Shown: positions 1,572 through 8,175 of the stretch, in pieces
How positions within the stretch are numbered: the first letter of the stretch is position 1
Layout of the letters: each line of letters starts with the position of its first letter
Assembly (NCBI GenBank): GCA_048939015.1
Contig: JBHLPW010000103.1
Coordinates: 1 to 10,550, forward strand
Source: Promethearchaeota archaeon
GTDB taxonomy: Archaea > Asgardarchaeota > Lokiarchaeia > Sigyniarchaeales > SOKP01
Direction: 5' to 3'
Length of the DNA stretch: 10,550 bases
Position numbers and translations under genes: made by a program
The notes under the pieces: generated by a model
The model's database searches: none
The model's input: only the letters and a program-made list of their open reading frames with translations
What the model was told of the DNA's origin: nothing

Positions 1572-4500
1572 TTAAGAGACAATTATAAAATCTTCTTGTG
1601 AAGTGTAGATAATTTCATTATTAACTATCAAAATCCACTTAAATCTAATTATGATATCGCTGATTGTACAATTAACCAATCCATTCAAAATCACTCCCTC
1701 TCCAGAATATAGAATATTGTCAATCAAGGTAAAATTAATACCACTATACATACCATGAGTAAATGTCTTATTTTCTATCGGATAATAAGTTGGGGGTACA
1801 AGGACTGAAAATGATCCGCCTCCATCTCGATAAAGAGACAAATTTACCTCAACATTATAACCTGGAGCAGTTATCGTTTCATTTATATTCTCAAGTTCTA
1901 TTCTAAAGCTTGCAAGATCATTAGGTAATGTCATTGAATTATCCATCTCAAAGTTAAATCTTATTGTGTATATTCTTGCATTAATTAATATCTTATTTGA
2001 TGTGGTGTTTCCATATGTATTTGAAGCTTTCACGTAAAATTCATAATACCCTGAAGTTAATTCAGAAATTGCAAATGAAGTCTGTGAACTAGGTAAATTA
2101 CTAATAAATAAACTATCATTTCTATAAATAGAATAACTATTAGCAAATTGAGATTCCGTCCAATTTAATATGAATGATCCATCTATATCGGGATTACCTG
2201 CATCACTTGTTAAGCTAAATGTCCCGGGTTTGAAATTTTCTAAATTATTATATGCCTCAAAAGCTTCAGCTCCATAACCTACCCTTCTAGTAAAGGCTTC
2301 AACAAATCCTGCCAATTTTAATTGCTGTAGACCACCAATAGTACTATAAGTTGGTATATAATAATATACCGAGCCTCCAAGAGGATAGAGTAAAGTATTC
2401 CCATTTCTGGCACCAGAAATTAATGTAATTTCCTGAGTTGCTTCTGTTTCATATGTATTTCTAGCAGTTTTAGGCCCAATTAAATTCTCTGTAGAATTTC
2501 TTGTATGATAAAAACGTGCTTCTCCAAAATTTTGACCGTGTCTTACGATATACATCCCTGCTAATGTATTTGCTTCAGTACCTCGATATTCTACTAAATC
2601 TAAACCAACATATTCAATACCATTTCCTAAATCCGTTTCAATATAGAAGAGATCACCATTTTCTGGTCTTTCATGAAAATCGTCTCCCCTCTTCCAAGTT
2701 TTTAGATCTTGTACATGGTATATATAATTGGCATCTAATTGCAATTCAAATAAATCTTCGGGATATCTTAACTGTGTACTTAACCAGATTGGAAGAATTT
2801 TCCAATTATATGCATCTACGTAATATTTCCATATAGAATAAGTTGGATCACTACTAGATTCAATTAGATTTGGGTTTTTATAAAATTCCATTTCACCAGT
2901 AATTACATCAACTAAACTAATGCCTAAGAATCTTAGAATTGGAGATCGAGAATAGGAACCAATATCTATTGAAGTATAAATGGACACAGCATAATACATT
3001 TTCTCATTATTTCTATCAAATACTAAATAAGGATCATTATCTACTTTTAATTGTGGTAACAGAATATTACTAACACGGTTTCTAACGTTCCTATTTATTA
3101 AATATGGCATTGCTCCTCCTTGAAAAACATAACCCCATAACCCTAAACTAGCCGTATACCAAAAAGCTTCCAATCCGTAAAGTACACCATCCGGTTCACC
3201 TTCATAAACATAGATATTATTTGGGATTCCTCCACTCCAATTAGTTCCAAGTAAAATGCTATTATCATAAGCTCCAAGATTGCCAAAAGACTCATGTTGT
3301 TGGAGGAATTTCTCACTTTCAGATTCACCAAAAAATATTGGATAATTTTCATCGATATTGAAAATCGAGCTTACGTCGACTAGTTCTCCTGTGTTTGTAT
3401 CCAATGCTAAGAATCCTTCAATGTGATCGTATAATTCAGTTGATACTCGTACAGGATCTCCAGCAAATTGGGATAATCTTATTGTTTTGGGAGCAACCCA
3501 ATATTCTGACCCATTTAAATAAACAATATCAGAGTCAGCTAAACCTTCATATGTAGTACCTATCTTTGCTGCCAAACTCTGTACTGCAAAATCTTGATCA
3601 AATTGTCTAATTCTTTCAAGCATTTGTGTATCATTTGCTACTGATGATGATAAAGTAAAATTTTCAATAGGTAACTCATCAAACATGTCTAATCCCGCAC
3701 ACACTCTGGTCCACATTATTTCTCTTTGAATTTTTTTATCCCATTCATACTCTGAATAAACAGAGGTATTACTTAATGTAAATATAGGCCCAATGCTTAT
3801 TATTAATGGAAATAAAATCATAATAATTAATGCTCCTGCTATAATTCCTACTTTCAATTTATTTCTTTCTAAAATTAATTTCATCCTTGGATATTTCGCT
3901 GACTTAATCCTACCAAAGATATAAATGATTATACCAAACCCAGTAAGAACTAAAAAAGCTATAATATAGGACCACATCTGAATGAGTTCAATTCCATTTA
4001 AAGCCAGAGTAGGTAAAGAAAGAAAAATTGAACCACAAATCAAACAACCTATAAATAGAGTGTTTGCTACGACATTGTAATCATTTTTTTTCAAGTAACT
4101 ATTACTAACAATATTTAAAATCAATCTTAATACTATGATTGCAACAATATAATATATAAGTGGTAAATAAATCCTGCTATAGATGAAAAGGAATTGTATA
4201 TTTACGCTGTATTGATTCATGAGGATATTAAATGCATCAATAAAAATGGTGAATGGTGAAACATTAATTTCACCTTTTTCTATTAAATACATAGCCCAGG
4301 AAAATTGTCCACCAATATCAAGCAAAAAACCTATAAAATAAAATAAAATAAAACCAGCTGTCCACCAAAAAATTAAGGTTTTTAGAATTGAAGGTTTACC
4401 GAACCTTAATCGAGTTCCTATTATAGTCAATAAATTTCGATTGGGAGGTAAACTCATTATAATACACCCAATTAACGCTCCAATTAAGGCTGTTTTGTTA

Positions 4501-4886
4501 AAAATAAAATTAGTTGACCAAAAATTAAGAAAGAAAACTTCATAATAACTAAGACCACCTGCCTTATTATTGTAAAGTTGAGCATTCAGATTTATCGGAC
4601 CAAACCAAGCAGGCCACCACCATAAAAGTGTTAAAACAGTTATGATAATTGCGATTGTTGGAAGTATAATCTTTAAATATTTTTTTAGTTTAGGCCTAAG
4701 TTGAAAAAGACCAAGTTTTAAAGGTCTTGTTATTGGAGGTTTTTCAGAGGCTTCAATATCTTCAAAACTTTCTCCACGTTCTAACCTTTCAATTTTTTTT
4801 TGAAATTCATACTTTCTTAGTTCTTCTCTGCACTTTTCACAGTAATAGTTAAATTTCTTATGTTTTTCGCAACTTGGTTTATCCAT
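1572..4886 (-). CDS. UPF0182-family (COG1615-like) multi-pass membrane protein with an N-terminal Cys/His zinc knuckle and a C-terminal FN3-like/beta-rich extracellular extension
   Basis: An N-terminal block of about 8-9 TM helices precedes a large soluble domain with UPF0182-like motifs (YDHIEGF, NRNVRNRVSNILLPQLKVDNDPYLV, QLRYPEDLFELQ...YH, IGPKTAR, RNGNTLLYPLGGSVYYYIPTY). The N-terminus has CEKH-x6-CEKC. An FN3-like segment reads PGTFSLTSDA...LNWTES..ANSYSIY...GYYEFYVKASNTYG, and there are many N-x-S/T sequons. Confidence 0.85.
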   Translation of the reverse strand: MDKPSCEKHKKFNYYCEKCREELRKYEFQKKIERLERGESFEDIEASEKPPITRPLKLGLFQLRPKLKKYLKIILPTIAIIITVLTLLWWWPAWFGPINLNAQLYNNKAGGLSYYEVFFLNFWSTNFIFNKTALIGALIGCIIMSLPPNRNLLTIIGTRLRFGKPSILKTLIFWWTAGFILFYFIGFLLDIGGQFSWAMYLIEKGEINVSPFTIFIDAFNILMNQYSVNIQFLFIYSRIYLPLIYYIVAIIVLRLILNIVSNSYLKKNDYNVVANTLFIGCLICGSIFLSLPTLALNGIELIQMWSYIIAFLVLTGFGIIIYIFGRIKSAKYPRMKLILERNKLKVGIIAGALIIMILFPLIISIGPIFTLSNTSVYSEYEWDKKIQREIMWTRVCAGLDMFDELPIENFTLSSSVANDTQMLERIRQFDQDFAVQSLAAKIGTTYEGLADSDIVYLNGSEYWVAPKTIRLSQFAGDPVRVSTELYDHIEGFLALDTNTGELVDVSSIFNIDENYPIFFGESESEKFLQQHESFGNLGAYDNSILLGTNWSGGIPNNIYVYEGEPDGVLYGLEAFWYTASLGLWGYVFQGGAMPYLINRNVRNRVSNILLPQLKVDNDPYLVFDRNNEKMYYAVSIYTSIDIGSYSRSPILRFLGISLVDVITGEMEFYKNPNLIESSSDPTYSIWKYYVDAYNWKILPIWLSTQLRYPEDLFELQLDANYIYHVQDLKTWKRGDDFHERPENGDLFYIETDLGNGIEYVGLDLVEYRGTEANTLAGMYIVRHGQNFGEARFYHTRNSTENLIGPKTARNTYETEATQEITLISGARNGNTLLYPLGGSVYYYIPTYSTIGGLQQLKLAGFVEAFTRRVGYGAEAFEAYNNLENFKPGTFSLTSDAGNPDIDGSFILNWTESQFANSYSIYRNDSLFISNLPSSQTSFAISELTSGYYEFYVKASNTYGNTTSNKILINARIYTIRFNFEMDNSMTLPNDLASFRIELENINETITAPGYNVEVNLSLYRDGGGSFSVLVPPTYYPIENKTFTHGMYSGINFTLIDNILYSGEGVILNGLVNCTISDIIIRFKWILIVNNEIIYTSQEDFIIVS

Positions 4887-5453: not shown

Positions 5454-5840
5454 ATGATTAATATGATTTTCCTATCTTTTGAAGAAATAATGTGGCTTTT
5501 GGTTATTTACCTTATAGTCCTGTTGATAATGGCAATTTTTTTGAGTATTGCTTTAAGTTTTTTTAGTAAAGCTCAACATACTAATTTTGGAAACGTTTTC
5601 TTAACAGCATTCTTGATTACTATAGTCTATGCTGTGGTGTTTTACTTTTTAGAAGGCTCGCTTGCTTTGGTTGGATGGTTGATAGTTTTAATCTTAACAT
5701 GGATAATAATCAGTGTTAGCCATAATGTTGGATTTTTGAGTGCAATAGTTATAACTGTTTTAGCTTTTCTATTGTACGTTCTCGTTGTTCTTTTACTTAA
5801 CTTTCTATTACCTATAACAATCGATCTTTTCCCTTTCTAA
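5454..5840 (+). CDS. Hypothetical 4-TM membrane protein
   Basis: 128-aa ORF with four hydrophobic helices and a weak internal two-fold similarity (HTNFGNVFLTAFL / HNVGFLSAIVITVL). A long T-rich tract follows it. The start could be 5454, 5463 or 5490. Confidence 0.8.
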   Translation: MINMIFLSFEEIMWLLVIYLIVLLIMAIFLSIALSFFSKAQHTNFGNVFLTAFLITIVYAVVFYFLEGSLALVGWLIVLILTWIIISVSHNVGFLSAIVITVLAFLLYVLVVLLLNFLLPITIDLFPF

Positions 5841-5867: not shown

Positions 5868-5969
5868 TCATTAATTTACAATAAATTTTGCAAACAGAGA
5901 TCCCCGACGTAAAGAATTTATTAATGAAGTCCCACGACAAAAAAATATAATACCACATTAATAGTTGCA

Positions 5970-5980
5970 TTTAAATATAA
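5970..5980 (+). promoter_or_regulatory. TATA box of the putative ncRNA
   Basis: TTTAAATA(TAA) is centred about 25 nt upstream of the first paired base (5998) of the structured element. This is the canonical archaeal spacing between TATA box and start site. Confidence 0.6.
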
Positions 5981-5997: not shown

Positions 5998-6342
5998 ATG
6001 TTCACTCCTAACGGTGTGAACGTCGAGAAGTAGTATTGTTAACTCGATGCATTGGACCGTAAGGTAATCAGAAGCGATTTGAAAGGAAATTATGTGTAAT
6101 AGCATAATATGAACTCAAATATAAATCGTTAGGTTTATAATGACGTTCAATCTGGCTAGTTCGTAAGAATTAGTGAGGTTATCAAACGATAACACCATTC
6201 AAAAAATAAGAAATTATTAATTGATTGGTATCTCTTTTCACGACGCACCCCTGATGTAATGTGTTGAGATTTCTTTGCATCTTGTAAAGAAAGGCAATAC
6301 TGTTGCAATGGACGCTTTAACGCATTCATTAGCAACTTCTCG
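5998..6342 (+). ncRNA. Large (~345 nt) highly structured non-coding RNA of unrecognised family
   Basis: Nested long-range helices found by hand: 6024-6029/6337-6342, 6032-6040/6293-6301, 6043-6054/6257-6268, 6067-6071/6251-6255, 6074-6076/6244-6246 and 6080-6087/6233-6240. There are nine local hairpins, three closed by GNRA loops. About 13 G-U pairs form on the plus strand, against about 1 A-C opposition. GC is about 35% (119/340 counted for 6001-6340) versus about 17% in the 60 bp at 6361-6420. A TATA box lies upstream, and I found no long plus-strand ORF. Confidence 0.85.
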
Positions 6343-6469
6343 TCCCTTCTATACCTATTAAAAAATAATTATTCTTCTAGTTTTGATATCAATCCAATAT
6401 TGAAATTTCATAAGAAAATTTTATAATATCCGTTACTTATAAGTTTTAAGTTTAAAATAGAAGTCAGAT

Positions 6470-7210
6470 TTGATTAAAATTCTCACAAAAAAAAGAAAAA
6501 GGTTCTTTATAACATCGGTAATAATCTTATTTATTGCATCAGGAATTGTTCTCTATTATTTTATAAATCTCTTTAACATATTTGACGTACGGCATTATCA
6601 AACTGATAATGACTTTATAATTGATTATGGTGAAGAGTATGGTGGTGTAAATGTAAATTTTCAAATCTCATATCAGAATTATGCATCCTTTGATTCATTA
6701 CTAATCTTTCATACAATTTCCTCTGCTAATGTTGAAGAAATTGGAATAACCAAAGTCTCTTTTGATGTCTATAGTGATACAACACTTGTTTGGTTAAATG
6801 ACTTTAATTATGATCCACCTGTTACATATGAATACGATTCATTTGTGATTGGAGGTATAGGCCAGTATGATAATATTTCATGTATTGGAATAATTTATGC
6901 TCAATTCAACGTTGAAGGTATTGTTCAAAATGAAACTTTACCTTTTGTATTATCAATTGTAATGCCAGTGAATCCACTTGAAATACGGGATGTCCATTTT
7001 ATGAATTTAATTTGGATTGAATATGGTTTAGGAATATTACTACTAGTTCTTGTCCTATTGACTTTTAGAACAATTCAGATTTGGAAACGGGAAGCCACTT
7101 ATACAGACGATGAGATTAAAAAAGATAAAGAATTTTGGGACTTTATTAATGATGAGTTGGAGAAATTTAAAAAAGAGTCATCTGATCAAAAGAATAAGAA
7201 AAAGAGTTAA
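6470..7210 (+). CDS. Hypothetical membrane-anchored protein (N-terminal TM, acidic beta-rich ectodomain, C-terminal TM, charged tail); paralog 1
   Basis: 246-aa ORF with a TTG start. A basic N-terminus (KKRKR) precedes the first TM, and a second TM is IWIEYGLGILLLVLVLL. It aligns without gaps to 7468-8175. Confidence 0.85.
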   Translation: MIKILTKKRKRFFITSVIILFIASGIVLYYFINLFNIFDVRHYQTDNDFIIDYGEEYGGVNVNFQISYQNYASFDSLLIFHTISSANVEEIGITKVSFDVYSDTTLVWLNDFNYDPPVTYEYDSFVIGGIGQYDNISCIGIIYAQFNVEGIVQNETLPFVLSIVMPVNPLEIRDVHFMNLIWIEYGLGILLLVLVLLTFRTIQIWKREATYTDDEIKKDKEFWDFINDELEKFKKESSDQKNKKKS

Positions 7211-7467
7211 AATCTTTTTCTTATTTTCACGAGATTTAAAAATTACTCAACTTGTTTGAAGATGTTTAAAAATTCTTAAAAAAATAAGTTAAAAATCCTG
7301 TCCAAATATAAAAAAAATCAATAATACTAAATTTTATCTTATCCTAAATCTCTCTAAAAATCCGACTAGTTAAGATATTAAGACAAAATTGATTTTAGAC
7401 AAGAACTATTTTTAAAATTTTACTCCTATAAAGTTTTAGATTAAATTAAACACTAAATATAAGTGAA

Positions 7468-8175
7468 ATGCTCGATAAAAAAAAGAAAAGGAAGTTATTG
7501 TTAAAATTACTATTATCAATTTTTGCATCAGGGATTGTTCTTTCTTTGTTTTTCATTCTCCCTCACTATTTGGACGTATCGAATTATAGATCAACCAATG
7601 ATTTGATTATTGAACATAATGAAGGATTTAGTGGTGTGAATATAGATTTTCGAATGTCTCATAGAATTGGAAATTCATTTGATACTCTGTTAATTTATCA
7701 AACAATTTCTTCAGCTGATATTGAAGAAATTGGTATAACAGATATTACATATGATATATATAGAGATGAGGATCTCATTTGGATTGATGATCTGGATTTT
7801 TCTGAACCTATGATGTATGTGGATAGATCCTTAATTTTGCAAAATATTGGTTTATATAATAATATTACATGTATAGGTACAATAAAAGCGCAATTTAATG
7901 TTGAAGGTACATCCCAAGAAGAAACTTTTGATTTTGTTCTAAGTATTTTTATGCCTGTCAATCCGCATGAAATAAGAAGCACATATTTGTTGAATTCAAT
8001 ATGGATTTACACGGGACTCGGTTTTGGATTGTTGGTCCTAATTGGATTAATTTATAGAACAACCAATGAATGGAGACGAGAAATCAAATACTCAGACGAG
8101 GAAATAAAAAAAGATCGGGACTATTTTGACTACATCTCATACAAAGTAAAGGAAAACAAAAAGAAATCAACTTAA
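7468..8175 (+). CDS. Hypothetical membrane-anchored protein; paralog 2 (tandem duplicate)
   Basis: 235-aa ORF with the same topology. It is about 50% identical to paralog 1 over about 205 aa by hand count (shared ASGIVL, TISSA.EEIGIT, CIG.I.AQFNVEG, FVLSI.MPVNP.EIR, EIKKD). Confidence 0.88.
   Translation: MLDKKKKRKLLLKLLLSIFASGIVLSLFFILPHYLDVSNYRSTNDLIIEHNEGFSGVNIDFRMSHRIGNSFDTLLIYQTISSADIEEIGITDITYDIYRDEDLIWIDDLDFSEPMMYVDRSLILQNIGLYNNITCIGTIKAQFNVEGTSQEETFDFVLSIFMPVNPHEIRSTYLLNSIWIYTGLGFGLLVLIGLIYRTTNEWRREIKYSDEEIKKDRDYFDYISYKVKENKKKST

Follow-up and report, generated by a model that had tools for sequence, protein, structure and literature searches.

The 10,550-nt stretch of DNA analysed here (the window) belongs to a 4.86-Mb archaeal genome assembled in 125 contigs (29.8% G+C, 95% complete). 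Between a 128-aa ORF (5454–5840) and a 246-aa ORF (6470–7210), its plus strand carries a gene predicted to encode an RNA of ~355 nt (5998–6352), which consists of a 5′ hairpin, a closed multi-junction body, and a pyrimidine-rich tail. The prediction draws on the stability of the fold (z = −9.1), on homologues, and on the covariation among them, and the gene is present once in the genome. The 246-aa ORF and the 235-aa ORF behind it (7468–8175) are tandem paralogues that have no Pfam match; this pair lies behind the RNA at no more than 4 loci. Farther upstream, the minus strand (1572–4886) encodes a protein of 1104 aa in which a UPF0182 domain and, weakly, Y_Y_Y are matched.

The sequence-only reading that drew attention to this locus had proposed that the RNA is transcribed from its own promoter, and the comparative data bear this out. 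A TATA box, TTTAAATA (5970–5977, plus strand), is centred ~25 nt upstream of 5998, where transcription is predicted to begin, and both its sequence and its spacing to the 5′ hairpin are invariant in nearly all homologues. Upstream of it lies a promoter cassette (5904–5964, plus strand) that is conserved in ~40 loci of differing genomic context; in the window it comprises CCGAC with an A-rich box (5904–5913), CGAC with an A-run (5935–5946), TATAATA (5946–5952), and TTAATAG (5958–5964). The order shared by all homologues is the CCGAC and A-rich box, the CGAC and A-run, TTTAATAA-CC, TTAATAG, five bases, and TTTAAATAT, which together span ~110 bp in fixed register, with the 5′ hairpin ~20 bases past TTTAAATAT. 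TTAATAG-N5-TTTAAATA upstream of a gene start is essentially unique to the RNA gene in the 4.86-Mb genome. The CCGAC/CGAC boxes with their A-runs are direct, ~31 bp apart, and conserved with the RNA in every context; together with the TATAATA-CC-TTAATAG block, they look like sites for a dedicated transcription regulator. T-rich sequence also lies past the 3′ end (5840) of the upstream gene. At the other end of the RNA, a pyrimidine-rich tail, UCCCUUCU... (6343–6352, plus strand), directly follows the body. Nearly all homologues have an N-CC-U-rich tail at this position (UCCCUUCUUU and similar), which is likely an archaeal terminator and the 3′ end of the RNA. That the predicted RNA is transcribed and stable, with the ends given here, is what we infer from its promoter and tail together with the covariation.

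The plus strand of 5998–6342 has a minimum free energy (RNAfold) of −117.6 kcal/mol, compared with −70.9 ± 5.1 kcal/mol for 100 dinucleotide shuffles, none of which folds as well (z = −9.1). The minus strand folds much more weakly (−86.9 kcal/mol, z = −5.7). The helices proposed in the sequence-only reading were all found at their coordinates and are identical to those of the computed structure, and the estimates of ~70–75% pairing and ~13 G-U pairs compare with computed values of 76% of bases in 131 pairs, 14 of them G-U. The predicted structure begins with the 5′ hairpin. A closing helix of 7 bp comes next and leads to a pair of trunk helices with one side hairpin each, an upper trunk, and a six-way junction with five hairpins. 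Its hairpin loops include UAAC, GUAA (twice), GUUA, AAAC, and GAAA.

BLAST identified single-copy homologues within the genus at 69–86% identity, and RNAalifold on 20 sequences gave 101 consensus pairs, 30 of which show compensatory changes. Searches used two covariance models, R1, which spans the body from P1 to P1, and R2, which was built on the short forms described below. The window RNA scores 301.7 bits with R1 and 85.5 bits with R2 and contains all elements of the family, namely the promoter cassette, the 5′ hairpin, P1 (CGAGAAG/CUUCUCG), the P2/P3 trunk, and a hairpin at the 3′ position, which has a UUCG loop in most relatives. In the set of 51 sequences aligned with R1, 93.2% of cells pair, compared with 33–46% when partners are slid, 60 of 92 pairs have changed on both sides, and none of 500 shuffles reaches the observed values. 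Since an R1 alignment is fitted to the model, we added a test in which 36 full-length long forms were aligned with MAFFT, blind to structure, and the window's own minimum-free-energy structure was projected onto the alignment. Here 86.7% of cells pair (36–44% when slid). Both sides have changed in 64 of 131 pairs, a count that, like the others, overstates the number of independent events because the sequences are closely related. Every helix received support in this test except one variable side hairpin, which MAFFT misaligns. The structure is thus far beyond chance and is maintained by compensatory substitutions in dozens of homologues, a test that the sequence-only reading had proposed.

The strand is also settled by these comparisons. 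In many conserved pairs G-U alternates with A-U and G-C (for example, 22 A-U with 14 G-U), and this alternation fixes the plus strand, which the difference in z-scores between strands and the conserved promoter and tail also support. A 59-aa ORF on the minus strand (6156–6335) is not credible as a coding region because of indels and pair covariation.

Support for the fold can be followed from one end of the RNA to the other; all elements lie on the plus strand. The 5′ hairpin (5998–6023), with its UAAC loop, stands immediately 5′ of P1 and is 86% paired, with double changes in 7 of 10 pairs (MAFFT test). P1 (CGAGAAG, 6024–6030, with CUUCUCG, 6336–6342), which closes the whole body, is 89–97% paired in the RNAalifold, R1, and MAFFT alignments, and its sequence is nearly invariant despite its being a helix. 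The trunk continues with P2 (6032–6040 with 6293–6301) and P3 (6043–6054 with 6257–6268), which are 88–90% paired in the MAFFT test, with 3 and 5 double-change pairs, respectively, and 6 and 7 in the R1 alignment. A small GNRA hairpin, ACC[GUAA]GGU (6056–6065), is supported in the MAFFT test and has a GYAA or GAAA loop in most homologues. The 5′ strands of the upper trunk, AUCAG, GCG, and UGAAAGGA (6067–6087), have their partners in 6233–6255 and are 85–91% paired, with 3, 3, and 2 double-change pairs; the region 6233–6268, in which both the upper trunk and P3 have their 3′ strands, is covered by the MAFFT test. The upper trunk carries the crown (6089–6229), a six-way junction with hairpins at 6089–6108, 6110–6149, 6156–6173, 6178–6193, and 6194–6229 that are 83–99% paired in the MAFFT test. 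Some unpaired junction bases of the crown are conserved, such as AUCUGG and GURAGG. The variable side hairpin (6270–6292) keeps its stem, and in most relatives a GNRA loop, while its sequence and length vary; although MAFFT aligns it poorly, 3 of 3 pairs have double changes in the R1 alignment. Finally, the conserved 3′ hairpin (6302–6335), which has a UUCG loop in most relatives, is 80% paired in the MAFFT test, with 5 of 5 double-change pairs in the R1 alignment.

The family varies in a modular way. The long form, to which the window RNA belongs, is ~345 nt including the 5′ hairpin and has the six-way-junction crown in 36 of 36 cases. A short form of ~265 nt keeps the 5′ hairpin, P1, P2, P3, the GNRA side hairpin, and the 3′ UUCG hairpin, while its crown is replaced by four small UUCG-type hairpins. 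Two copies under separate promoters occur in some species, and in others a long unit comes directly behind a short one. In several species, three units occupy ~740 nt with a single promoter and a single tail, and the spacers between tandem units consist only of homologues of the 5′ hairpin. Such three-unit arrays occur at L116:3047–3790 and likewise in G149, G117, G119, G089, and G018, and at L099:3284–3763. As the canonical P1 3′ strand and the tail are found solely after the last unit, a three-unit array might fold as one giant RNA. Taken together, the alignments describe a near-invariant trunk (5′ hairpin, P1, P2, P3, and 3′ UUCG hairpin) bearing an exchangeable, GNRA-rich crown, in units that are single or tandem.

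Could such units assemble with one another? UMAC/UNAC tetraloops adopt GNRA-like folds, and on that reading each unit has five or six GNRA-type loops. In the second genus that carries the RNA, a UAAC loop replaces the GNRA loop of hairpin 11, and the same loop recurs inside unit B of the arrays. Together with the two GUAA loops, the GAAA loop, and the two- and three-unit arrays of several species, this would fit an assembly made of RNA only, in which units dock through tetraloop/helix contacts and the tandem arrays represent covalently fused oligomers. There is precedent in GOLLD, ROOL, and OLE RNAs, for which homo-oligomers have been reported by cryo-EM (PMC12286853). However, complementarity between loops is not conserved. 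The UAAC loop of the 5′ hairpin could in principle kiss the GUUA loop at 6128–6131, to which it is complementary in the window, but this idea fails because the two loops do not co-vary: homologues have GUGA, ACUA, AUUU, GCAA, UUCC, and others in place of GUUA, while UAAC stays constant. Pseudoknots were sought both as pairwise covariation and as stacks of conserved pairing between columns left unpaired; these searches returned only noise, and no stacked, non-nested covariation was found. We consider assembly through RNA contacts unlikely. If it did occur, the RNA would be an archaeal counterpart of the GOLLD/ROOL/OLE RNA-only complexes, with the tandem genes as natural fused oligomers.

It is also conceivable that the RNA is a ribozyme, processing itself or acting on another substrate, with an active site formed by conserved nucleotides of the trunk or of the crown junctions. 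In size it resembles large catalytic RNAs, and so it does in having multi-way junctions, more than one GNRA loop, and junction bases that are unpaired yet conserved. Yet no Rfam ribozyme family matched, no pseudoknot was detected, and the crown, which holds most of the conserved junction bases, is wholly replaced in the short forms, so that any active site would have to sit in the simple trunk. We regard catalysis as improbable. The broader proposition that this is a first Asgard-specific class of large ornate RNA that works by self-assembly or catalysis, and not as a passive protein scaffold, is doubtful in our judgment.

How widely is the RNA distributed? R1 found it in 37 of 54 genomes of the window's genus and also in two further genera belonging to that family. 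With R2, 59 of 135 species of the family were positive (36 of 53, 21 of 42, and 1 of 6 in the three genera, and none in the ten other genera), and by both models the RNA is found in 3 of the 13 genera of this one Loki-type Promethearchaeota family. R1 found nothing in three sister families and 26 other sampled Asgard families except one marginal 20-bit match, and closed genomes of the sister family (4.4, 4.3, and 6.0 Mb) gave no match at E ≤ 1. A pattern search for the 5′ hairpin and P1, using one genome per prokaryote species, matched 35 contigs from MAGs that bear the label Promethearchaeota or Promethearchaeia, in agreement with the Asgard host that had been thought probable from the sequence. 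This places the host in the Loki-type order, to which the closed 4.4- and 6.0-Mb genomes without the RNA belong as well; some matching MAGs carry the submitter labels Hermod-, Hod-, or Thorarchaeota, and the matches include the closed 3.34-Mb chromosome CP070831.1. Two matches in bacterial MAGs were set aside as chance, being without a covariance-model match. About 20 sediment metagenome contigs also contain the RNA. As far as searched, the family appears restricted to one Loki-type Asgard family.

Against known RNAs, the long form matched none of the 4227 models of Rfam 15 (cmscan), either at gathering score or at E ≤ 10, and the one chance mir-15 match at E ≤ 10 falls within the promoter. 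At permissive thresholds, the tandem array and the short form gave only chance miRNA and snoRNA matches to Rfam 15, and full-text searches of the literature found no description of the RNA. The expectation of the sequence-only reading that no Rfam family would claim the RNA thus holds for the long, short, and tandem forms, and the family, absent from Rfam 15, appears to be previously uncatalogued. The models for OLE, ROOL, GOLLD, raiA, and HEARO were among those that none of the three forms matched.

The RNA might still be a divergent version of a universal or eukaryote-like RNA, such as an RNase P/MRP paralogue, SRP RNA, Y RNA, an RNA resembling tmRNA, or an intron of group I or II. Its size is comparable, it has a terminal closing helix like those of RNase P/MRP and SRP RNAs, and RNAs of eukaryotic type are conceivable in an Asgard host. 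Against this stands the lack of any Rfam match even at E ≤ 10, and the sequence-only reading had likewise set aside RNase P RNA, SRP RNA, tRNA, and group I/II introns. Archaeal RNase P RNA (RF00373) has no match in the window at E ≤ 10, and the RNA has neither a P4-type pseudoknot nor stacked non-nested pairing; the genome encodes its genuine RNase P RNA on another contig (C19:1733–2055, 129 bits). Archaeal SRP RNA (RF01857) likewise has no match in the window, and the genome's SRP RNA lies on a third contig (C111:42426–42662); unlike the universal SRP RNA, the RNA described here is absent from many complete relatives. That SRP RNA match is partial, covering only model positions 67–307 of Archaea_SRP at 63 bits (gathering score 96.5), so that in this lineage the 5′ part of the SRP RNA seems to have diverged. 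ARAGORN found no tRNA or tmRNA gene in the window, and the 3′ hairpin ends in a UUCG tetraloop in most relatives and has no 7-nt T-loop. With default settings ARAGORN reported only 13 tRNA genes in the whole host genome, with one tRNA-SeC; most tRNA genes of the host are probably intron-bearing or unassembled. A Y RNA is excluded in practice because no TROVE (Ro) protein (PF05731) was found in the 95% complete genome. As to introns, there was no Rfam group I or II match, the RNA is intergenic with its own promoter and interrupts no gene, and the sites that lack it lack promoter and RNA together, which counts against an intron. Since the RNA is also dispensable, as described next, kinship with any of these RNAs is very improbable.

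The genomic context is variable. The usual site, used in the second genus by long and short forms and in the window's genus by short forms, lies ~150 nt past a gene for a family-B DNA polymerase (~805 aa, PF00136) and before a convergent gene of 184 aa. In all polymerase-linked loci, a conserved ORF of ~99 aa without a Pfam match precedes and slightly overlaps the polymerase gene (for example, L074:117–431 and L070:137–433). In the window's clade, the long form lies elsewhere and follows the 128-aa membrane protein in 17 loci. Other subclades show three or four further contexts, including five loci in which a homologue of the UPF0182 membrane protein adjoins the RNA in two different arrangements; one genus holds at least four or five contexts. 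These follow subclades, as would be expected from ordinary rearrangement. The host genome itself and two relatives (G023 and G064) have empty polymerase sites, in which the polymerase gene and its neighbour are directly adjacent and the ~480 bp of promoter and RNA are absent together, without duplication or inverted ends. In G064, G005, and G030, unrelated DNA follows the 128-aa gene. Because such clean empty sites are verified in relatives estimated to be 100% complete, the RNA is dispensable, and with its presence in only 59 of 135 species, this means that it does not belong with core RNPs such as RNase P and SRP.

None of the neighbours appears to be a functional partner. Adjacency to the polymerase is best read as an inherited position and not as a sign of function, since RNA-less genomes keep the polymerase gene and its neighbour simply adjacent. 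The 128-aa membrane protein occurs in genomes that lack the RNA and is missing from some that have it, with empty sites directly after its gene. More generally, the neighbouring membrane-protein genes vary between loci, the 128-aa protein does not co-occur with the RNA, and no consistently linked partner protein was found among the neighbours of the loci examined.

The same observations bear on two further explanations. Patchy presence in several positions could mean that the RNA belongs to a mobile or defence-type element, as a guide, an omega-like RNA, or a small non-autonomous element. The clean presence or absence of a ~480-bp cassette of promoter and RNA after both the polymerase gene and the 128-aa gene, the four or five or more contexts within one genus, and the duplications of the RNA would all be accommodated. 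However, the RNA is a single copy in a 4.86-Mb genome, and comparison of occupied and empty sites revealed no terminal inverted repeats and no target-site duplication, which also disposes of a MITE, as anticipated in the sequence-only reading. The loci examined have no adjoining transposase, nuclease, reverse transcriptase, or Cas gene, none of 2.9 million viral contigs matched the RNA, which likewise argues against a viral origin, and the contexts track subclades in the manner of ordinary rearrangement. A mobile or defence role therefore has only a slim chance of being correct. The second explanation is that the RNA is a giant riboswitch-like leader acting in cis on the genes at 6470–8175. 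In the window the RNA is co-oriented with these two paralogous membrane-protein genes and lies 127 nt upstream of them, but they follow it in only 4 of ~50 loci, and a conserved pyrimidine-rich tail comes right after P1. Elsewhere, the downstream gene is a different one and is often convergent; since downstream genes vary and converge in this way, a cis-regulatory leader is refuted in practice, and we give it scarcely any credence.

What, then, does the RNA do? We hold it very probable that the RNA is genuine, structured, and trans-acting, and that it represents a new family; action in trans is favoured because downstream genes differ between loci and are convergent at the polymerase locus. 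Our preferred explanation, which we think probable, is that 5998 to ~6352 on the plus strand is a stand-alone gene for a stable, compact noncoding RNA of an uncatalogued family that serves as a trans-acting scaffold, with its trunk as a recognition platform. The RNA would act as a folded scaffold, and its invariant trunk would be recognized by a partner, which could be a protein or further copies of the same RNA. The trunk is assigned this role because P1 is nearly invariant although it is a helix. The crown may provide tertiary packing through tetraloop docking, for compaction or for contacts, and could be swapped with function retained. As to mechanism specifically, the chance that the RNA works as a protein-binding scaffold or sponge seems to us about even.

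Large, intricately folded RNA classes are rare, and nearly all of those known are bacterial or universal. The Asgard RNA resembles OLE, ROOL, GOLLD, and raiA RNAs, as the sequence-only reading had suggested, in being a stand-alone gene of several hundred nucleotides with multi-way junctions, many tetraloops, strong covariation, and a patchy phylogenetic distribution. Given the homo-oligomers reported for OLE, ROOL, and GOLLD (PMC12286853), a tandem or oligomeric organization is plausible for it as well. However, it shares no sequence or structural homology with these classes, whose Rfam models do not match; it has an archaeal host and an archaeal TATA promoter, is smaller (265–355 nt per unit), and shows no prophage or membrane-protein linkage in our searches. 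With archaeal RNase P and SRP RNAs, it has in common the character of a stable ~300-nt RNA with its own promoter, a helix closing the 5′ and 3′ ends, side hairpins, and GNRA loops. Yet it has neither their conserved motifs nor the P4 pseudoknot, carries a 5′ hairpin outside the closing helix, coexists with both in the host genome, and is absent from many complete relatives. A third comparison is with protein-sponge RNAs of the CsrB/RsmZ type, in which each transcript holds repeated structured modules whose copy number depends on the species. Repeated modules in one transcript, in variable number, are a shared feature, but the Asgard modules are multi-junction folds of 230–350 nt and not short GGA hairpins.

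Because the RNA is dispensable and restricted to one lineage, it is unlikely to bear directly on eukaryote origins. Covariation nonetheless supports it well, and it is confined to relatives of those archaea that stand closest to eukaryotes. Its modular design is unusual: the trunk is fixed, the crown can be swapped, and units may be arranged in tandem. Although its hosts are uncultured, at 265–355 nt the RNA is within reach of in vitro transcription, chemical probing, and cryo-EM. Its partner or activity, once found, would define a new functional RNA architecture and might reveal a process specific to Asgard archaea.
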